Source: Candidatus Saccharibacteria bacterium RIFCSPHIGHO2_12_FULL_41_12 (GTDB lineage Bacteria > Patescibacteriota > Saccharimonadia > Saccharimonadales > 2-12-FULL-41-12). Taken from it: 64,000 nucleotides of DNA. Position 1 is the stretch's first letter. Every line of letters starts with the position of its first letter. A program made the position numbers and the translations under genes. The stretch is taken from positions 104,462 to 168,461 of the forward strand of contig MGCQ01000001.1 in assembly GCA_001790445.1 (NCBI GenBank), given 5' to 3'. Below, piece by piece: positions 21,106-57,093 of this stretch. The notes beneath the pieces were generated by a model. It had not been told where the DNA came from. It searched no databases and saw only the letters and a list, made by a program, of their open reading frames with translations.

Positions 21106-21180
21106 TCCCGGGTAGCTCAATGGTGGAGCAAGAAGCTGTTAACTTCGAGGTTGTCGGTTCGAATCCGACCCCGGGAGCCA
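21106..21180 (+). tRNA. tRNA-Asn (GTT), CCA encoded
   Basis: 75 nt. Acceptor TCCCGGG/CCCGGGA, D stem GCTC/GAGC, anticodon loop CTGTTAA, T arm GTCGG-TTCGAAT-CCGAC, then G-CCA. Confidence 0.95.
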
Positions 21181-21181
21181 T

Positions 21182-21226
21182 CCTCCGTCGCTATGTTTTG
21201 ACATAGCTATGGGGGATTATTTTTTG
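21182..21226 (+). terminator. Hairpin plus T-run terminator directly after tRNA-Asn
   Basis: Stem GCTATGT/ACATAGC with an outer CCTCC/GGGGG extension, followed by TTATTTTTT. Confidence 0.65.
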
Positions 21227-21268
21227 AGTCGGACTTGAACAAGACAACCCATACAAGCCAGCTTGGAT

Positions 21269-21357
21269 GGTAGTTGTCGGTTCGTTCATAAGAAGCTCTC
21301 GCAGAAGCTTGCTCCGAGAAAGCTTTGCAGTGTGCCAAAGGCAGCCCCACCCCGAGA
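21269..21357 (+). repeat. tRNA-Asn-derived T-arm fragment carrying a ~62-nt insertion (repeat B), a direct repeat of 23890-23975
   Basis: GTTGTCGGTTCG + insert (TTCATAAGAAGCTCTCGCAGAAGCTTGC…GGCAGCC) + CCACCCCGAGA. Roughly 90% identical by eye to the 23868-23980 copy. Confidence 0.8.
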
Positions 21358-21379
21358 ATCAATTCAGATTCAAGATACT

Positions 21380-21417
21380 GTTAGAACCGATTCCCCTCGT
21401 TGGGAGTCGGTTCTAAC
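21380..21417 (+). other. 16-bp perfect-stem hairpin in the leader of the KaiC-like gene
   Basis: GTTAGAACCGATTCCC-CTCGTT-GGGAGTCGGTTCTAAC with one G-U pair. No following T-run. Confidence 0.6.
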
Positions 21418-21541
21418 CATTTCTGGGAACTGTAAAAGGCCCCATTCATTTTTTCTAGTGAACCTACGCATTTGATTGCATTTATCCTCTGAGTTAGCTA
21501 TCATTTAGATACAAACAACTAATGTTTTTTCATCTGGGCGT

Positions 21542-23335
21542 ATGATAGATAATAGCGATGTTCAACCTAACTTAGACAATACGAATGATCAAGAGATATT
21601 TGAATGCGAAAAAAATCAATTGTTAAATGATAGAAATACTTACCCCCCTACTTCTGCTTCAGTAGAGAAGACACTCAACACGGATATACGCCCCACTGGC
21701 ATCCCAGAACTTGATCAAGTTCTTTATGGAGGAATGCCTTCAAACGCAACTGTTATTTTAGCTGGCGGACCTGGCACAGGAAAAACAACACTCGCCTTGC
21801 AATGGCTTGTCGCAGGGTACAAACAGTACAATGAACCCGGTCTATACATCACAGCTACCGAGCCCATCAACAAAGCTTTAAGCAATTTAAAAAAACATGA
21901 GTTTGGCAAAGAATTTGTAATGAACAAAGATACTATAGTTTTTGAAGATCTTCGGACAATTATTAGTAATCTGAATATGAAAGAAGAGAATCTTGTCGAC
22001 GAAAATCTTGATCGGATTATTGACGCAATCTCTGATTTAATTCAGACAAGCGGTGCCAAGCGAGTCGTTATTGATTCTATTACCGCTCTCACATATGGCC
22101 TCCAGGAGAAAAGCCAAGTTCGCAAATTCATTCATCATATGGACGCCCTTATAACGCTTTCTGGCGTAAATATTATTTTAATCTCAGAAGCGTCAGGTGC
22201 TGACCGCTCCGTTTTTGGGGTTGAGGAATTTATAGCTGATGGCATCATCAGATTGACACGAGCCAGGGAGAGCAACGAACTCGTTCATTATCTAGAAATT
22301 ATAAAAATGCGCACGATATCATATAATTCACGACCAATCTCTTATAAAATTACGCCACATGGAATTAAGTTATTTCCTGACACAGAACAAGATTTGACTT
22401 ATCAATCATCATCTAAGCGCATTACTACAGGTATCCCCGGTTTAGACGAAATGACCGGCGGGGGATTTATAGAAGGATCAGCTATACTTGTCACCGGCAC
22501 ATCAGGAGCCGGCAAATCAATCTTGTCCCTACAATTTTTGCAAAATAGATTGCTGGAAAAACAAAATGCGGTTCTCGTTTCCTTTGAAGAATCTAAAGAG
22601 CAAATATACCGAAATGCAAAATCTTTCGGGTGGGATCTCGAATCTTATGAGAAAAATGGTCAGCTCACTGTACTTACAGGATTCCCCGAAAGCAAATATC
22701 CCCAGGAACACATACTAACTATCCAAGAATTGACCGAAAAAACAAATGCCAAGTTTTTAATATTTGATTCTATATCGGCGGTAGAAAGTACATTTTCTTC
22801 TGAAAAAGCACGTGATATGATCACGCATCTCAATGCTTATTTGAAATCTAAAGCCATAACCACCATATATACGAATGCGACACAGACACTTCTTGGCTCA
22901 ACACAAGTAACTGACTCGCGGCTCTCTACGATTACTGACCAAATCATTATGTTACGATACGTTGAAGTGCAGTCGAAATTACGTCATGCGCTCCTCATAC
23001 TTAAAATGCGTGGAAGCAGCCACGATAAAAGTGTGAAAGAGATAGTGTTTGACACAAGTGGTTTAAGAATTACAAATGATTTTTCTGGAATGGAGGGAGT
23101 TCTGACCGGAAGCGCGAAACAAGTTTCCGCATCAACTGAAGAAAAAGTGCATTCTTTATACATGGAGATGCTGGGACCAATGGGAGAAAAACTGTTCAAT
23201 CAAGAGAAAAAAGGCGGTCTATCAGCTACCAAAATACACCTTATGATCCAGGATCTAGCAGATCAGGGAATTCTTGCGAAAGAAAAAAAAGAAGAGTTCT
23301 TTTCTAAAATTAATTCTATTTTTGGCATCAAATAA
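21542..23335 (+). CDS. KaiC-like double RecA-fold ATPase
   Basis: 597 aa. Two tandem KaiC/RadA-like domains with Walker A GGPGTGKT and GTSGAGKS, each preceded by GIP.LD. Has ~55-aa N-terminal and ~80-aa C-terminal extensions. Confidence 0.85.
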   Translation: MIDNSDVQPNLDNTNDQEIFECEKNQLLNDRNTYPPTSASVEKTLNTDIRPTGIPELDQVLYGGMPSNATVILAGGPGTGKTTLALQWLVAGYKQYNEPGLYITATEPINKALSNLKKHEFGKEFVMNKDTIVFEDLRTIISNLNMKEENLVDENLDRIIDAISDLIQTSGAKRVVIDSITALTYGLQEKSQVRKFIHHMDALITLSGVNIILISEASGADRSVFGVEEFIADGIIRLTRARESNELVHYLEIIKMRTISYNSRPISYKITPHGIKLFPDTEQDLTYQSSSKRITTGIPGLDEMTGGGFIEGSAILVTGTSGAGKSILSLQFLQNRLLEKQNAVLVSFEESKEQIYRNAKSFGWDLESYEKNGQLTVLTGFPESKYPQEHILTIQELTEKTNAKFLIFDSISAVESTFSSEKARDMITHLNAYLKSKAITTIYTNATQTLLGSTQVTDSRLSTITDQIIMLRYVEVQSKLRHALLILKMRGSSHDKSVKEIVFDTSGLRITNDFSGMEGVLTGSAKQVSASTEEKVHSLYMEMLGPMGEKLFNQEKKGGLSATKIHLMIQDLADQGILAKEKKEEFFSKINSIFGIK

Positions 23336-23356
23336 TGCTTATGTTAATATAAAAAC

Positions 23357-23854
23357 ATGGACAACACGCCCCTAGACGTTTCTGCTATTATCCTAAATAT
23401 TATTGCTACCATGATCTCTTTCAGTGTGATTGTGCTGATGATCATCCTTATTATGAGAACAAAACTTCTGAGGAGGGGTCTAACGTTTATCAGTGTAGGT
23501 TTTGGAGTTGCAGTATTCTTGCATTTACTAGCTGATTCTTTAGAATTGGCTGGCTATCTGGGCAAGGGCACCCTGATGGATATTATGCCTATATTTATTG
23601 CTGTCGGATCTATCTTAATATTTATTGGGTGTTATAACCTGTTAAAAATTACAAGACCTATCAATAAACTGACAGAAGAAGTACAAAGTATCTCCACTGG
23701 TAAACTGGATATTGAATTGTCTGGAATAGATAGAAAAGACGAGCTCGGAGAGCTAGCGAAAGCTTTTAACCGAATATTAGTAAGTCTCAAACTCGCCATG
23801 AGAGAACAACCAGTCGCAGGATCAGAAATAAGCGAAAAGACCAAAGAAATTTGA
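23357..23854 (+). CDS. Membrane protein with a HAMP domain and no output domain
   Basis: 165 aa. Three TM helices, then HAMP-like ITRPINKLTEEVQSISTGKLDIEL…DELGELAKAFNRILVSL. Confidence 0.75.
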   Translation: MDNTPLDVSAIILNIIATMISFSVIVLMIILIMRTKLLRRGLTFISVGFGVAVFLHLLADSLELAGYLGKGTLMDIMPIFIAVGSILIFIGCYNLLKITRPINKLTEEVQSISTGKLDIELSGIDRKDELGELAKAFNRILVSLKLAMREQPVAGSEISEKTKEI

Positions 23855-23867
23855 AAAGCTAAAAACA

Positions 23868-23980
23868 AGCAAGAAGCTGTTAACTTCGGGGTTGTCGGTT
23901 CGTTCACAAGAAGCTCTCGCAGAAGCTTGCTTCGAGAAAGCTTTGTAGCATACCAAAGGCAGCCCCGACCCCGGGAGCCA
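23868..23980 (+). repeat. Partial tRNA-Asn copy (anticodon arm to CCA) with a 62-nt insertion in the T loop (repeat C)
   Basis: AGCAAGAAGCTGTTAACTTCGGGGTTGTCGGTTCG + 62 nt (23903-23964) + CCGACCCCGGGAGCCA. It lacks the acceptor 5' strand and the D arm. Confidence 0.85.
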
Positions 23981-44532: not shown

Positions 44533-46041
44533 TTAGAGGCTAACTGTTTTTGTTATAACAGCTGTTGCGCCGTTAGCATCAGTTACGATCAATGTAGCGA
44601 TGTAATTGCCTAGTTTTTTATATTTGTGAGTGGGGGATACAGCCGTAGAAGTTCCGCCATCTCCGAAGTTCCAGCTATAAGTCAGATTCGTACCATCTAT
44701 ATCACTTGAAGTATTTGCAAAACTTACATTGCGATGTGAGCCAACAGTAAAGTTGAATCCAACCGTTGGATCGTCGTTAATACTGGAGACAGTCAGGCTA
44801 ACCGTGGCTGTGGCAGAACCCTCAGAATTAGAGACTGCATATGTAAAGCTATCACTGCCATTGTAGTTAGTGGCAGGGGTGTAGGTAAATGTGCCATCTG
44901 TAGAAACGGAAACTGTGCCATGTTGAGCTTGTGTCTGTAATGAGTAGGTGGCCACGCCTTCGACAGAGTCGTTTGTGGTGACACTACCGCTTAGCGCGCT
45001 GTCTTCACTGACTGAGAAATTGTCGGCAATGGCAACAGGCGGTTCAATTACAGGATTGACCGTAATATTTACGATAGCCTGGGAGCTAAAACCATCAGCA
45101 TCTGTCACGCTGTAAACAAAGCTATCGACGCCGTTGTAGTTGGCGGCAGGGGTGTAGGTGAATGAACCATTGCCTAGATTTTGCAAAGTTCCGTGATCAG
45201 CACCATCGACAACGTCAACTTGCCCAGGCAAAGGCTGGTCATCGCTATCATTGGCATATACGTTAATCTGGACTGAGCTGTCTTCATTAACAACCGCTTG
45301 GTCGTTCTGAAGAGTTGGAGCTACTGGATCGGGGACTACTGTTCCTAGAGTCATAGTAACTGTTGCTTCATTGCTAACACCTCCATACACATCAACTGCT
45401 CGATAAGTAAAGCTAACTGGGCCTCTATAACCAGGCTCAGGAGTATATGATGTATAGACTGACTGGCCTACGTTGACACTTCCGTGATCCGGCTGGGTTA
45501 CTACCTCGGCGAATAGGAAATCACCTTCGGGATCTGAGTCGTTTGCACGCAAATCAGGCGTTATAGTGTTTCCGCTATCAAGAGAATAGTCTGACAGACC
45601 ACTAAAATCATACTGATCATTATTAGCCGTGGGAGACTGATTAACATCGCGAACATTGAGATCCCTACTATAACTATCCGTCAATCCTACTTCGTCAGTA
45701 ACTGTTAACGTAGCCACGAAAACACCTGGAGTAAGATATACGTGCGTAATATCTCCAGCAGAAGAACTATAGCCTGTGCCGTCTCCAAAATCCCAAGTGT
45801 AATTTGTTATTTGATCCCCGCAGCCATCACTGTAATTAGTAAAATTTGCAGTCTGATTGGTCATAATCGTAGCGTCGGTCCAGAAGGAAGAATAAGGCAC
45901 ACCATCCGCACCGCATGTAGGGCCCCCAGCAGCACTTGCTTTATTAACACTTACAATACCTAGGACCGGCGTCATCGCCAGAAACAGAGCAAAAACCCCA
46001 AAAGTAAATTTTTTAATATTTGTTAACATTAGACCCTCCAT
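44533..46041 (-). CDS. Secreted surface protein with PKD domains flanking cadherin/Ig-like repeats
   Basis: 502 aa with a signal peptide. WDFGDG…H.Y appears at both ends (PKD), with repeated …DSF.Y.V.D..G.S… modules between. Confidence 0.7.
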   Translation of the reverse strand: MEGLMLTNIKKFTFGVFALFLAMTPVLGIVSVNKASAAGGPTCGADGVPYSSFWTDATIMTNQTANFTNYSDGCGDQITNYTWDFGDGTGYSSSAGDITHVYLTPGVFVATLTVTDEVGLTDSYSRDLNVRDVNQSPTANNDQYDFSGLSDYSLDSGNTITPDLRANDSDPEGDFLFAEVVTQPDHGSVNVGQSVYTSYTPEPGYRGPVSFTYRAVDVYGGVSNEATVTMTLGTVVPDPVAPTLQNDQAVVNEDSSVQINVYANDSDDQPLPGQVDVVDGADHGTLQNLGNGSFTYTPAANYNGVDSFVYSVTDADGFSSQAIVNITVNPVIEPPVAIADNFSVSEDSALSGSVTTNDSVEGVATYSLQTQAQHGTVSVSTDGTFTYTPATNYNGSDSFTYAVSNSEGSATATVSLTVSSINDDPTVGFNFTVGSHRNVSFANTSSDIDGTNLTYSWNFGDGGTSTAVSPTHKYKKLGNYIATLIVTDANGATAVITKTVSL

Positions 46042-46122
46042 TAATTTTAAACCATGGATTTATTAAACCACTTATTGCACGCAATAACAACCAGGCTTGA
46101 TTAGAACCCCTACACTGCCCAA

Positions 46123-46797
46123 TCAGTGTAGAAATCTAAATGGTAATGAATCTTGCTGAGCAACTCTTCCAGCCCTTAAAACATGAGGCGGTTTCTTTGT
46201 GGGAGGCTCGATGCCTACAATCCAATCCTTTTTAATACCACCGAATATTCCAACTTCTGCTACCTCAATTGTATCTTTATACCCAATTTGTTTGTCTGTG
46301 GCTTCAATAACCTTCGCCACTGGCAGCACTCGATCCATAGGAACATCAAGAGCCATAAGGTGCATGTGTGGCCAGATGCGTTTTTTTGCTAGGTACTCAT
46401 CGTAGGTTGCAGATAACCATACGGTGGCAACTCCGTAAGCTCTTTGCATATAAACAGACTGCATTCTGTCAACTTTAGGTACAAAACAGCCTGGCAAATC
46501 AGGACTTTCATCATCTAATGGCTCAATCTTTTTCCTATAGAAATCAAATGGATCCTTTGAATACCAATCAGGTAACTTTACTGTGTTTGACAATGTCGCT
46601 ATACTAGCAACGCTCAAATTACCGATATCTATCCCCCTAAAGGCTGTTGCTAGCTGTGGAACATCAATATTTAAGGATCTTCTATACAAGCGTATGTTGT
46701 CACCGTTAATTTCTATCTCTGAATTACCTTCAAAGTAAGGTCGATACTCGCGTCCGCCAGCTTCGATATATTGAGCAAATGTATTAAAATAAGACAT
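46123..46797 (-). CDS. Hypothetical protein
   Basis: 224-aa ORF with no recognisable motif. Confidence 0.5.
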   Translation of the reverse strand: MSYFNTFAQYIEAGGREYRPYFEGNSEIEINGDNIRLYRRSLNIDVPQLATAFRGIDIGNLSVASIATLSNTVKLPDWYSKDPFDFYRKKIEPLDDESPDLPGCFVPKVDRMQSVYMQRAYGVATVWLSATYDEYLAKKRIWPHMHLMALDVPMDRVLPVAKVIEATDKQIGYKDTIEVAEVGIFGGIKKDWIVGIEPPTKKPPHVLRAGRVAQQDSLPFRFLH

Positions 46798-46873: not shown

Positions 46874-47250
46874 GTTGCGATTAAAGCCCTCTGGGCTTTT
46901 AATCACCATACTTTCTTGTGCTAACAAGAAAGTATGCAAAGAAATAGCAGGCGGTTGAACAAACTTGATGGGACTATCGGTCAAGGATCACAACAGACTG
47001 CGGAACTCTCTCCCTTTGGTCGTTCAAACAGTCCTCGCCTGATAGTTGTGATCTTGACGTAGTCTCTCAGGTTTGTTCAAGGCCTGACCAACAATCTGTA
47101 TATTTTCGTAGAAAATATTATTAATTATGACTTTAGACTATTTCATGCCAGGCCCTTGAATAACTGATGAAATATCTATTCAAGCAACGCCATGTTTTGA
47201 GGACCAGGGCTTGTCCCCGACTGGAAGGAGTCCCGGAAAAACTGGGTTGG
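46874..47250 (+). ncRNA. Candidate large structured RNA, copy 1 (unassigned class). The 3' boundary is uncertain
   Basis: No credible ORF. It is homologous in blocks to the reverse complement of 55172-55564, with compensatory changes in at least four helices (see findings). Confidence 0.6.
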
Positions 47251-47377
47251 TTGGAGAGATATTTCAATCATGTTAGTTCAATAGCCTGTCGTTTTTTGGG
47301 TTCCGTTTTTGTCGACACAAAAATGGAACAAAATACGGCTTGTGTGCAAGCCTGCTGGAAGTTGTTATACTTATGAT

Positions 47378-53321: not shown

Positions 53322-53406
53322 TGGTGCCGGAGGAGGGACTCGAACCCTCAAGCCTTGCGGCATGCGATTTTGAGTCGCACGCGTATACCAATTCCGCCAC
53401 TCCGGC
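53322..53406 (-). tRNA. tRNA-Leu (CAA), CCA encoded
   Basis: 85 nt on the minus strand. Acceptor GCCGGAG/CTCCGGC, anticodon stem TGCGA/TCGCA with loop CTCAAAA, long variable arm, T arm GAGGG-TTCGAGT-CCCTC, then A-CCA. Confidence 0.95.
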
Positions 53407-53409
53407 ATT

Positions 53410-53658
53410 TTATCTATTATACACTAAGGATTTTAAGAATTCTTTACCTACACCTGATTTTAAATACTTTTCACGTTTGCGTGCTTCTAGCCCTGTCCCG
53501 CACATCTCGCTGTACACAAGCCTGAGAGGAGCATAAGCTTTTGTTGAACGACTCTTACCCTCATTATGTTGCTGAATTCTTCTTTTTAGATTACTGGTCA
53601 TCCCCACATAAATGTAGTTTTTTGATTCACTTTGTAGGGCATAGACATAATAATTCAT
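53410..53658 (-). CDS. GIY-YIG nuclease family protein (UPF0213-like, 82 aa)
   Basis: YVYAL…IYVGMTSNLKRRIQQHNEG…E…REKYLK motifs. The stop codon ends 3 nt before the mature 5' end of tRNA-Leu. Confidence 0.85.
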   Translation of the reverse strand: MNYYVYALQSESKNYIYVGMTSNLKRRIQQHNEGKSRSTKAYAPLRLVYSEMCGTGLEARKREKYLKSGVGKEFLKSLVYNR

Positions 53659-53839: not shown

Positions 53840-55036
53840 ATGAATGATCCAACTAAAAAAACACCTCTTGATGCACTCGGGGACGACAATAATCCAGAAC
53901 TTGCGGCTGAGTTAGTTAGGAAGAAATTAGATAAACTTTATGGCAAAGAACCCAGTGCCAAAGAAGAGATTCAAGAAGTTCAGCATGAAGATTCCAGCGA
54001 TATGTCCAAACATCAGCACTACATGGACGACCTTTCCAAATCAGGACTTAGTCTACACGAAATTCAAATAAAGTGGCATGAATATTATAACGCTCTGCCA
54101 GACAACGAAAAGAGACAAGTTTGGCGAGAATTTTATCGGCACCACGAGCAACAAAAAAATAAATTGCAGCATGCCCAAAGTTCTCGGAAGCAAACCACTT
54201 CAATAGCCAGTGCAAGTCATGTACACGCGCAACATTCTGCCAAAATTCATGACAAAGACACCACAGAAGCTGTGAAGAATGATTTGATCAATCGCATCCA
54301 AACGCGGTCCAAACCAATAACCAAAAATCAGCACGTTCGATCGCTCATCTTTGGCTTTTCAATGGGTGGTTTTGTGCTGTTGGTGCTACTTTTTAGCTTT
54401 TTCAATGAAAGATTCATCACGCCATTTATACGGCCTAGCACTAACGTTAGCGCCTCGGCAATTATCGTTAACCCAGAGGGGGCGGGCACTGCATCAGGAC
54501 CAGAGCCAAAAATAATCATCCCAAAGATCAATGTTGAGGCCCCTGTGGTGTATGACGAGCCATCGATAGAAGAAAAAGCCGTCCAAAAGGGGCTGGAAAG
54601 AGGTGTTGTCCACTACGGCACAACTCCAAATCCTGGAGAAAAGGGAAACGCCGTTATATTTGGCCACAGTAGTGGCAATATCATCAATAGTGGTCAATAT
54701 AAATTTGCCTTTATTCTTCTCAAAAGTCTCGAAAAAAACGACACTTTTATTATTGATAAAGATGGCAAAAGATATGCCTACAAGGTTTATGAAAAATATG
54801 TCACTGCACCGACGGATGTTAGCATACTCAAAGCTAGGGACCGTCCATCGACAATGACACTTGTTACTTGTGACCCACCTGGTATGTCGACAAACCGCCT
54901 AATAGTAGTCGGTGAACAAATTTTTCCTGATCCTGTCGCGAACAAAGAGAGTACTGTAGTTAATCAAAATGAAATACCTAAAACCCTGCCAAGTAATAGT
55001 CCTAGTCTTTGGCAAAAAATTAAAAACTGGTTCTAA
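53840..55036 (+). CDS. Sortase-family transpeptidase with a long N-terminal region and a TM anchor
   Basis: 398 aa. GNAVIFGHS and TLVTCDP (TLxTC) catalytic motifs. Confidence 0.85.
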   Translation: MNDPTKKTPLDALGDDNNPELAAELVRKKLDKLYGKEPSAKEEIQEVQHEDSSDMSKHQHYMDDLSKSGLSLHEIQIKWHEYYNALPDNEKRQVWREFYRHHEQQKNKLQHAQSSRKQTTSIASASHVHAQHSAKIHDKDTTEAVKNDLINRIQTRSKPITKNQHVRSLIFGFSMGGFVLLVLLFSFFNERFITPFIRPSTNVSASAIIVNPEGAGTASGPEPKIIIPKINVEAPVVYDEPSIEEKAVQKGLERGVVHYGTTPNPGEKGNAVIFGHSSGNIINSGQYKFAFILLKSLEKNDTFIIDKDGKRYAYKVYEKYVTAPTDVSILKARDRPSTMTLVTCDPPGMSTNRLIVVGEQIFPDPVANKESTVVNQNEIPKTLPSNSPSLWQKIKNWF

Positions 55037-55072
55037 AGAATAATAAACTTCTATAATGAACTGCATTTCGCC

Positions 55073-55093
55073 AAGCCCTAAATAGGGCTTTTG
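55073..55093 (+). terminator. Rho-independent terminator of the sortase gene
   Basis: AAGCCC-TAAATA-GGGCTT followed by TTTG. Confidence 0.65.
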
Positions 55094-55171
55094 TCGACCT
55101 ACTTTTTCTCTATAGCAAGAAAAAAGTAAGCAAAAAGTGCCACCCCAGTTTAAAAACAATTACCCTAGCTT

Positions 55172-55564
55172 ATTACAACTACAAACAGACTACTCTTCCG
55201 GGACTCCTTCCAGTCGGGGACAAGCCCTGGTCCTCAGATTAATCTGTTTGTAGTTGCAATAACCAAAGGTGTTTTTAAAAGGGGACCAAAAGCAGTCTAA
55301 AGTCATTATTAATAATATTTCCTACGGAAATATACAGATTGTTGGTCAGGCCCTTTGAAAAACAGATGAGACGAACAAACCAAAAGCTCCTTGTTTTGAG
55401 GACTAGGTCTCCCAGACCCGACCAAAGGAAGTCCCGGAGAAACAGGGCTTTTGTTTTGTTTGGATCAATATGTATTTTTCAAACAGCCTGCTATTTCTTT
55501 GCATACTTTCTTGTTGGCACAAGAAAGTATGGTGATTGAAAGCCTGGAAGGCTTTAAGCGCAAC
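55172..55564 (-). ncRNA. Candidate large structured RNA, copy 2 (inverted relative to copy 1)
   Basis: The reverse complement aligns block-wise with 46874-47250. The 41-nt block at 55194-55234 is identical, and helices are maintained by compensatory substitutions. Confidence 0.6.
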
Positions 55565-55602
55565 TTTTTAGTTAAAAATAGGTTCTTTGGGAAAAAACTA
55601 TT

Positions 55603-57093
55603 CTACTGGTCTGCTGGAGTTCTCAAAGCCACCTGATCCAACGTATAGGTAACAGCATCCAGTGAACCAATTGTATAGTATTTCTCATAATCTCGATCGA
55701 AATATATATTTTTTGAACTGGGGAGGGGAGTAAGCACCTGTTTATTTGAACCGTCAAAATCAATCATCATACCTTGACCATTCCCTGACACAACAATCCT
55801 GTGCCCATCTAACCAGATTGGCGCATCGCCCGCAGGCATAATCGCATCTATTTTATAATGGTAGCTTTTCTTATCTTCCATATCATAAATCGAGATATCA
55901 CCACCACCAAACGAAGATATAAACCTTACATTTTTAGAAAATTCTAGCTTCAGATTACTACTTATATTATTTTTGATCACTCTGATTGGACTAACTTTTG
56001 CGGAAGTAGTCGCCTTTGATTTTTTTACAAAATCCTCATAAATATATGTCTTGCCCTCTTTTTCTGAGCCAATAATTATGTACCACTTATCTTGAAAACT
56101 AGCGATATTAAGCGGTAGGTTCTCGCTCAGAGGTATATCACGGATATCATATAATTTGTTGTTATCAATGAGCGAAACACGAGCTTTAGTCTTGTCGCTG
56201 GGGCTAACGTGAGTAAATAATATCTTATCATCACCGTGCGATTTAAAGCTTAACACGCCACTGAGAAGTAGGCTTGTTTTTTTATCTTTCTTGTTTATAA
56301 GAGTCAAAGCACCACTAGACTTATTAAATACCAAAAACTTATCGGCACTTTTATCCAGCAGGCTGACTTCGCCGTCAATCGTACCAATTGTTTTAAGATT
56401 AAACGATTTTGTTGGTTGATCTCTGTTAAGAAGCGCATATTCAAACTTATTGTCATAAGTATGTTTGACCAAAAAATCCGTGTTGTTATTCGACCAATCT
56501 ACCACTTCAAATTGGCTAGGTCCTACGGCTTTTTCAAAAACCCCATCCGGTATCGCAAAAGAGCGTATTTTTGGTAATTTTGCACTAGTAAGATCAGTCA
56601 AATGATATTCTTTCATAGAAGACAGATCCGCATTTTCGCTAACAATCAGCCAGTTGCGATCCGGGCTCTGGGAATATACGCTTTTCATCGTTGTATTTGA
56701 GTCAACTTTGACTGTTTTGAGGTCTTTGGGCACTAACATTGGGTAATTAAATCGCTCTATCTCACTACCTTCTAGCTCAAACTTTCTCTGCCAAGTCCTG
56801 TATCCCTCTTTATTTAGTTGCAAATCATAGCCCCCAGCGAGCAGTGTAAACCTGGTGTTTGTTTTATCTGGGTGATCTTGACCATTAATCTTGATATTTG
56901 CCTTATCAGGGGCACTATCGACATAAACTAGACCATTTTGGATCACTTCGCCTGTTTTTCTATCCACATCGAAGCCGTAGGCCTTTAAAACAAGCATCAG
57001 AGCGACCGTCACCACCGCCAAGCCAACCAAGCCCTGACCTATGACTAATATCCAATTATGACGTCTTTTATACTCTGGATCGAGAAATTCCAT
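55603..57093 (-). CDS. Membrane-anchored PEGA-domain protein with a probable beta-propeller-like C-terminal region
   Basis: 496 aa with an N-terminal TM. PEGA-like motif …ANIKINGQ…GGYDLQLNKEGYRTW. Confidence 0.6.
   Translation of the reverse strand: MEFLDPEYKRRHNWILVIGQGLVGLAVVTVALMLVLKAYGFDVDRKTGEVIQNGLVYVDSAPDKANIKINGQDHPDKTNTRFTLLAGGYDLQLNKEGYRTWQRKFELEGSEIERFNYPMLVPKDLKTVKVDSNTTMKSVYSQSPDRNWLIVSENADLSSMKEYHLTDLTSAKLPKIRSFAIPDGVFEKAVGPSQFEVVDWSNNNTDFLVKHTYDNKFEYALLNRDQPTKSFNLKTIGTIDGEVSLLDKSADKFLVFNKSSGALTLINKKDKKTSLLLSGVLSFKSHGDDKILFTHVSPSDKTKARVSLIDNNKLYDIRDIPLSENLPLNIASFQDKWYIIIGSEKEGKTYIYEDFVKKSKATTSAKVSPIRVIKNNISSNLKLEFSKNVRFISSFGGGDISIYDMEDKKSYHYKIDAIMPAGDAPIWLDGHRIVVSGNGQGMMIDFDGSNKQVLTPLPSSKNIYFDRDYEKYYTIGSLDAVTYTLDQVALRTPADQ

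Follow-up and report, generated by a model that had tools for sequence, protein, structure and literature searches.

The window, as the whole stretch of DNA analysed here is called, comprises 64,000 nucleotides of contig MGCQ01000001.1 from Candidatus Saccharibacteria bacterium RIFCSPHIGHO2_12_FULL_41_12, whose GltX matches that of the window at 100% identity, and contigs identical to it are present in Rifle groundwater assemblies. Copy 2 of a long repeat lies, as had been claimed, between the 3' ends of a PEGA-domain gene (55603-57093, minus strand) and a sortase gene (53840-55036, plus strand), and copy 1 is followed, at a distance of 25 nt, by a HAD hydrolase gene (47378, plus strand). The two copies are convergent, with an 8-kb block of core genes, syntenic in relatives, between them. 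Beside copy 1, positions 44533-46797 (minus strand) hold lineage-specific cargo, namely, a 502-aa secreted protein with PKD, Big_9 and cadherin repeats and a 224-aa ORFan. The latter was considered as a partner protein and set aside, with no relatives in Pfam or PHROG and no match other than itself among 5.8 billion proteins.

Elsewhere in the window, a second copy of the 3' half of tRNA-Asn(GTT) (21106-21180) lies at 23868-23902 (97%), and an 81-nt stretch near this tRNA gene (21273-21353) recurs at 23891-23971 (90%). The ~2.7 kb between these repeats encode a KaiC-like ATPase (21542-23335) and a HAMP-domain protein (23357-23854); the region 21106-23971 looks like an island integrated at tRNA-Asn(GTT), with no integrase seen there. 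An 82-aa ORF with a GIY-YIG domain (53410-53658, minus strand; Pfam E = 1.6e-17) adjoins tRNA-Leu(CAA) (53322-53406) and is annotated as a gene in one assembly and not in another.

The original prediction held that the reverse complement of 55172-55564 shares blocks, in the same order, with 46874-47250, and this is borne out by alignment. The blocks common to copies 1 and 2, listed below, are 89-100% identical and are separated by unrelated, self-complementary stems.

Block A: GTTGCG, two hairpins and GCAAAGAAATAGCAGGC; common to both copies
Block B: CCTTTGGTCG...AGTCCTC; common to both copies
Block C: GGCCTGACCAACAATCTG...ATGACTTTAGACT; common to both copies
Block D: GAGGACCAGGGCTTGTCCCCGACTGGAAGGAGTCCCGGAA; common to both copies

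Block D (40 nt) and the head of block C (25 nt) each occur exactly twice in the window, with 0 occurrences expected from shuffles, and a repeat finder returned three inverted arm pairs (90 nt at 89%, 59 nt at 95% and 41 nt at 100%). The self-complementary insert GGTCT-GGG-AGACC between CCTTTGGTCG and AGTCCTC was confirmed in the sequence, as was the pairing of CCAAACAAAACAAAAGC with GCTTTTGGTTTGTT, and the first reading was right that hairpins are kept while stem sequences differ. The repeat is real, but the span 55172-55564 is too short: as the homologues described below reveal, its 3' part runs on through a conserved tail to ~55059, and the full unit of copy 2 is 55059-55564 (minus strand). 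The full unit of copy 1 extends to ~47352, that is, 46874-47352 (plus strand). The parts of the two units are as follows.

55059-55564, minus strand: copy 2, whole unit, 506 nt; A, X (B orientation), block C, X (D orientation), inverted A-like tail
55486-55564, minus strand: copy 2, terminal unit A; TTGCGC, P1 (55536-55557), ATCACC, P2 (55502-55531), linker CAAAGAAATAGCAGGC; aligns with 10 other element ends
55346-55491, minus strand: copy 2, X module 1; long hairpin with conserved apical core 55398-55437, the reverse complement of block D
55294-55352, minus strand: copy 2, central block C; hairpin at the dyad centre, 55315-55333
55148-55281, minus strand: copy 2, X module 2; long hairpin with many G-U pairs, apical core D at 55198-55235
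55059-55147, minus strand: copy 2, tail, an inverted A-like unit; GGGGTGGCACTTTTTGC, P2' (55098-55130), P1' (55073-55092), GGCGAAATGCAGTT
46874-47352, plus strand: copy 1, whole unit, 479 nt
46874-46952, plus strand: copy 1, terminal unit A
46947-47087, plus strand: copy 1, first X module
47081-47139, plus strand: copy 1, central block C
47164-47272, plus strand: copy 1, second X module, core 47199-47236
47283-47352, plus strand: copy 1, tail of type 1, an inverted, diverged A-like unit

The order of the unit is thus terminal A (two hairpins), X, central hairpin, inverted X, and inverted A-like tail. The A unit, ~80-90 nt in length, consists of the P1 hairpin AAAGCC-loop-GGCTTT, the motif ATCACC, the P2 hairpin, and a purine-rich linker with a CAGGC end, and stands in inverted orientation at the two ends of the element. 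Each unit contains two X modules, also in inverted orientation, with a ~45-nt conserved apical core in each, and the homologues reveal that block B is approximately the reverse complement of block D. In copy 2, unit A and the reverse complement of the tail are identical at 49 of 62 aligned positions, and this tail is conserved in four metagenomic loci (L018, L028, L029, L031). On the plus strand, P1' together with TTTTG appears terminator-like for the sortase gene.

Global alignment of each copy with its own reverse complement gave 79% identity for copy 2 (score 262 versus 114 +/- 14 for shuffled sequences) and 68% identity for copy 1 (score 214 versus 101 +/- 13). These self-alignments, like that of one homologue (L029), are collinear across the whole element, and the unit is therefore a pseudo-palindrome. 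Eleven ends, comprising 5' ends and reverse-complemented 3' ends, align on the pattern ..TA(A/G)CYNCA followed by TTGCGMTTAAAGCC-loop-GGCTTTnAATCACCWTACTTT, with TA directly before 9 of the 12 ends examined. The organization is symmetric, with two conserved, hairpin-capable units inverted around a spacer, as in REPINs, and the terminal inverted repeats, small size and lack of an ORF are those of a MITE. The terminal units of ~80-90 nt show no GTAG/CGTC tag at conserved positions at the hairpin foot, the tag that marks the 20-40-nt REP unit.

Both copies are predicted to fold strongly, with energies of -138.6 and -146.2 kcal/mol (z = -7.8 each against shuffles). The 18 X modules aligned in the D orientation share an invariant core, GAGGAC, a small hairpin, and CGAC-YRRARGG-AGUCCCG. 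The core consensus contains 15 pairs, 10 of which show double compensatory changes, and 95.9% of all cells are paired, versus 79.9% in shuffles; on every measure, the observed values were reached by none of 500 shuffles, and slid controls collapsed. Central block C contributes one compensatory change, U-A to C-G, between copies 2 and 1. The family is extragenic and multi-copy, with compensatory changes in its hairpins, as are REPINs associated with RAYTs. A covariance model (R1) built from the 18-module alignment finds exactly the known modules and none elsewhere in the window or in the syntenic loci of relatives. Its four hits in the window fall two per element in inverted orientation: 55374-55461 (plus strand, 76.8 bits; X module 1) and 55175-55259 (minus strand, 77.8 bits; X module 2) in copy 2, and 47175-47260 (plus strand, 84.9 bits) and 46976-47060 (minus strand, 51 bits) in copy 1. 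Folding of the two strands was compared for whole units and for each module separately.

Whole units: sense -1700 versus antisense -1633 kcal/mol; G-U pairs 112 versus 100
Right-hand X module, all 9 copies: sense -420 versus antisense -331 kcal/mol; G-U pairs 50 versus 20
Left-hand X module: sense -570 versus antisense -586 kcal/mol; G-U pairs 24 versus 27

The near-equal folds of the two strands follow from the global dyad symmetry, and the strand asymmetry is partial evidence for one transcribed strand. From the pairing and the two-strand fold data, it follows that hairpin formation in a single-stranded state is maintained.

Searches against known families were performed with both copies and their blocks. 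In Rfam 15, the window copies matched no family: at the gathering threshold, the window gave three tRNAs only, at E <= 10, both copies gave chance-level matches alone, and nine homologous loci gave none. By-eye likenesses to RNase P P4 (GGAAGGAGUCC), to the R/S elements of group I introns and to the hammerhead CUGAUGA motif were rejected, with no model support and the partner motifs missing. The track ORFs overlapping copy 2 had been judged not to be genes, and a chimeric six-frame peptide query assembled from the blocks agreed with this, finding no match among 5.8 billion proteins. A type I toxin-like small ORF was also ruled out because the AUG in block C is not kept in homologues. Comparison with blastn yielded one chance match of 32 nt among phages and none among plasmids, and scans of viral contigs with blocks D, C and A returned nothing. 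A 20-mer from block D had no true match in the genomes of 185,579 species and one chance match, in Intrasporangium.

A first metagenome scan with the head of block C as the query found nothing, and a second one, with the 19-mer CCCGACTGGAAGGAGTCCC, returned 17 loci. Nine of these (L017, L018, L022, L025, L027-L029, L031 and L033) are true homologues with 10 copies in total; the other eight loci matched by chance, in unrelated DNA of high GC content. All but one of the true loci come from Hainich groundwater, the exception being a JGI contig (L028), and the Hainich samples with copies of the element also contain relatives whose GltX is 84% identical. The members detected come from a narrow group of groundwater Saccharibacteria. 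No further copies were found within +/-10 kb of the window.

The synteny of related genomes, which the original prediction had proposed to compare, was informative at both copies. Three relatives with GltX 78-82% identical (L006, L008, L009) share the order sortase, PEGA, DUF4367, GltX, and the C-termini of the sortase and PEGA proteins are conserved. The stop codons of these two genes are 1-6 nt apart in the relatives, compared to 566 nt in the window, so that the whole spacer is lineage-specific and the element is absent at the orthologous sites. The closest relatives (84% GltX) were left out of this comparison, their contigs ending before the sortase/PEGA site. The two segments delimited in this way are as follows.

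55037-55602, no strand: sortase/PEGA intergenic region, 566 nt, an insertion relative to the syntenic relatives L006, L008 and L009
44468-47377, no strand: lineage-specific segment of 2.9 kb between the Exo_endo_phos and HAD genes, with the PKD/Big_9 surface protein gene, the 224-aa ORFan and copy 1

In L008, there is a 4-nt overlap between the Exo_endo_phos and HAD genes, which are 2.9 kb apart in the window. At the sortase/PEGA site, no clean target-site duplication can be defined between the filled and empty forms, with ~27 and 22 extra nt left over. Promoter searches revealed none that is consistent among copies, the upstream flanks being unrelated. A simple scan for terminators detected none inside the two copies and none at all at copy 2, the sole terminator being at 47337-47352 beside the tail of copy 1. 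A shared 5'-UTR or riboswitch role had already been considered unlikely, rightly so, given that copy 2 points toward the 3' end of the sortase gene and that orientation varies among the 12 copies.

All copies, two in the window and 10 in the metagenomic loci, are intergenic, and their flanks differ by locus (rplS, truB, an ABC permease and others), with every orientation relative to the neighbors represented. Among the X stems, at least four sequence classes, unrelated to one another, can be told apart, and they occur in both orientations and at both positions; for example, the stem of the right-hand X module in copy 1 is a flipped form of the left-hand stem class found in L022, L025, L031 and L033. 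At least three types of tails are found among the copies. A second hairpin module (..GGAGAGTATAAGCGGAGTGCAGACCGAGAAGATATCTTCTCGG..) is present in opposite orientations at ~1880-2010 of L027 and ~4230-4320 of L017, where it replaces or adjoins an X module. Six contigs (L003, L005, L022, L025, L028, L031) end inside the element, often directly after block A; such breaks in independent assemblies are consistent with a multi-copy repeat on which assembly graphs collapse, and copy numbers in MAGs are therefore probably underestimated. Blocks are 90-100% identical between species, compared to 67% for the HAD proteins, a difference that fits selection and recent spread equally well.

The locus orthologous to that of copy 1 was recovered in L033 and in L034, a longer contig from the MAG GCA_964355265.1. 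There, the element lies directly upstream of the HAD gene, which is 67% identical and preceded by the same type 1 tail as in copy 1, and a 206-aa ORF is located between the A-X half and the X-C-X-A' part of the element, which are in inverted orientation. This ORF matches the Pfam family Y1_Tnp (IS200-like) with 40.1 bits (E = 4.7e-10) and the NCBIfam model of REP-associated tyrosine transposases with 38.6 bits, below the cut-off of 80, and contains an HUH-like motif, HFHLL, along with RYIHLNPV. Small inverted hairpins, GAGAGGTCAGACCTC, stand directly on either side of the ORF; they look like the X apical hairpin (GAGGTC.GACCTC and GGTCT..AGACC, respectively) and were not found in the window. 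With flanking hairpins of its own, the Y1 gene may merely have inserted into an element. Among the loci examined, this is the one locus where the repeat units enclose a Y1 gene; in the window and within +/-10 kb of it, no transposases were detected, whether Y1 homologues or others.

Some features of L033 deserve separate mention. Downstream of the Y1 transposase gene, at 1204-1300, a 48-nt unit, TTTTCGAGAGGTCAGACCTCATAAAGGACTAAAATGTGTTTTAATGTG, is repeated in tandem, and the alignment between L036 and L033 is broken at this array, suggesting that its length may differ between assemblies. The inner part of the element is inverted relative to the outer units, and together with the convergent arrangement of the copies in the window, this suggests that inversions between copies or modules may occur.

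On balance, copies 1 and 2 belong to a family of non-coding, pseudo-palindromic mosaic repeats of ~480-510 bp that is probably a non-autonomous mobile element of the REPIN/BIME/MITE kind, its putative mover being a Y1 (HUH) transposase. The original prediction had left the choice between an independent RNA gene and a DNA-level element, of which the latter is favored and the former less so. Five observations favor the DNA-level reading: close relatives do not have the element at the orthologous sites; in another species, it is scattered over intergenic sites unrelated to one another; the unit as a whole is dyad-symmetric and ends in long inverted repeats; its modules form mosaics in which either orientation occurs; and one copy carries a gene for a Y1 transposase. 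Several observations weigh against it. No transposase was found in the window or in the +/-10 kb around it, and the Y1 gene is seen at one locus only; the single comparison of filled and empty sites shows no clear target-site duplication; the unit is 5-10 times the size of classical REPINs, without their GTAG/CGTC tags; the conserved apical cores and 60-bp stems exceed the expected needs of a transposase; and the sense-strand folding bias of the right-hand X module would be expected from a transcribed functional RNA, too. No excision or insertion polymorphism of the element was observed in the loci compared.

Transposases of the Y1 (HUH) class act on folded single-stranded DNA. We propose that such an enzyme, acting in trans on the non-autonomous element, would copy it into intergenic sites, usually beside TA, the likeliest candidate being the IS200/RAYT-like Y1 protein nested between the halves of one copy. 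The use of folded single-stranded DNA by these enzymes might also be the reason why hairpin pairing, rather than stem sequence, is kept. The inward-facing terminal hairpins with their short T-runs could terminate transcripts entering from the flanks, which, we propose, would make insertions tolerable.

The alternative that the copies are independent ~500-nt structured non-coding RNA genes, with several paralogues, appears unlikely. The cores would then be functional sites, perhaps for protein binding or tertiary contacts, with the variable stems as scaffolds, and the mutually complementary B and D cores could pair within or between molecules. The very low folding z-score (-7.8), the compensatory changes in 10 of the 15 X core pairs, and the conservation of the cores far beyond that of the flanking proteins are in line with this possibility, as are the excess of G-U pairs on the sense strand and the ~90 kcal/mol better sense fold of the right-hand module when all nine copies are pooled; the 5' TTGCGCT and 3' AGCGCAA could, furthermore, close a terminal helix. 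However, retention at orthologous loci and a promoter and terminator of its own, as would befit a non-coding RNA gene, were not found: the sites in close relatives are without the element, and neither a conserved promoter nor a canonical terminator was detected. Dyad symmetry gives both strands nearly the same fold (see the whole-unit values above), and in the left module the sense strand is not favored. Copies differ by exchanged and inverted modules, one of them has a transposase gene inside, and orientation to the neighboring genes is inconsistent. The family is also very narrow, the block D 20-mer having found no true match among 185,579 species.

A variant of this reading, to which we assign a somewhat lower probability still, is that the element is, or has become, a functional RNA locus that spreads like a selfish gene in ultra-small CPR genomes. 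It would produce either a ~500-nt pseudo-symmetric "ornate" RNA or two divergent RNAs of ~230-250 nt, the X cores pairing with each other or binding a dedicated protein; in the two-RNA form, each RNA may consist of an X hairpin and an A unit, about half of the element.

We attach a comparably low probability to a classical MITE moved by a DDE transposase, such as a TA-targeting enzyme of the IS630/Tc1 type, with hairpin modules that are incidental or selected by the host. The long terminal inverted repeats, the TA directly before 9 of 12 ends, the length below 600 bp, the lack of an ORF and the intergenic location all suit such an element. Yet no DDE transposase and no autonomous IS with the same ends were seen among 36 loci, the sole transposase physically linked to the family is a Y1 enzyme, and no duplicated TA is demonstrable when the filled and empty sites are compared; transposition of double-stranded DNA would, in addition, not be expected to maintain pairing or to conserve internal cores. 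Finally, a locally duplicated cis-acting transcription element (a bidirectional terminator or insulator, or an mRNA-stabilizing 3' or 5' UTR structure) is highly improbable: terminal hairpins AAAGCC..GGCTTT(T) point inward at both ends, copy 2 lies between convergent genes and copy 1 just upstream of the HAD gene, but the simple scan found no terminator within either copy, 500 nt with conserved internal cores go far beyond the needs of a terminator, and relatives have just 1-6 nt between the same genes.

The preferred reading, a mobile mosaic repeat, invites comparison with known systems, the closest being REPINs and BIMEs. REPINs are symmetric doublets with conserved ends and compensating hairpin stems that flank a RAYT gene (PMC3116915; PMC2817692). 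The family described here is similar in being extragenic and multi-copy, with inverted doublets and palindromic units that alternate and form mosaics (PMC3116915; PMC2817692), and here, too, a Y1/HUH transposase gene is flanked by inverted repeat units, at one locus. The differences are substantial: the unit is ~500 nt, whereas REPINs have ~100 nt and REPs 20-40 nt, and it lacks the GTAG/CGTC tag; conserved motifs are located at the tips of long (60-bp) sub-hairpins in addition to the ends; copy number is apparently low; the Y1 protein scores 38.6 against the RAYT cut-off of 80 bits; and the host belongs to the Saccharibacteria, within CPR. The element is, therefore, not assigned to the REP family.

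Non-coding intergenic repeats with modular or palindromic structure also include the pneumococcal BOX, the Correia elements of Neisseria, ERIC, and the Rickettsia palindromic elements (RPE), and Correia elements insert at TA. In contrast to these, the element here is much longer, contains two inverted copies of a conserved internal hairpin module, and keeps its pairing by compensatory change. IS200/IS605 elements and PATEs, their non-autonomous derivatives, resemble it in several respects: the transposase is of the Y1 type, the ends carry hairpins, target duplications are not obvious, and movement proceeds through single-stranded DNA, a mechanism under which hairpins are selected. IS200/IS605 have asymmetric ends whose hairpins both act on the same strand, whereas the ends in this family form true inverted repeats and dyad symmetry extends over the entire unit. 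We know of no transposase-bearing parent with the ends of the element. The large "ornate" RNAs OLE, GOLLD, ROOL and raiA, whose function is not known, likewise span hundreds of nucleotides and contain numerous hairpins, in which cores are conserved and stems vary. Unlike the present family, however, they are broadly distributed, are not DNA palindromes and are neither mosaic nor flipped; the repeats here are insertion-polymorphic between relatives, occur in a very narrow range and match nothing in Rfam. What BOX, Correia, ERIC and RPE share with the present family is terminal inverted repeats, hairpins that are stable if transcribed, and tolerance near gene ends (see also PMC3184786).

The genomes of Saccharibacteria and other CPR bacteria are tiny and streamlined, and no description of interspersed repeat families in these organisms was found in the literature searched. 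For RNA discovery screens, the family is a caution, since mobile elements that pass through single-stranded DNA can yield both compensatory pairing and very negative folding z-scores; if, on the other hand, the X core functions at the RNA level, a new RNA motif would have been identified. Should the mobile-element interpretation be correct, biology of the REPIN/BIME type would extend to the CPR radiation, with units several times larger and more elaborate, and the repeat family would be a natural marker of recent genome dynamics in Saccharibacteria epibionts.
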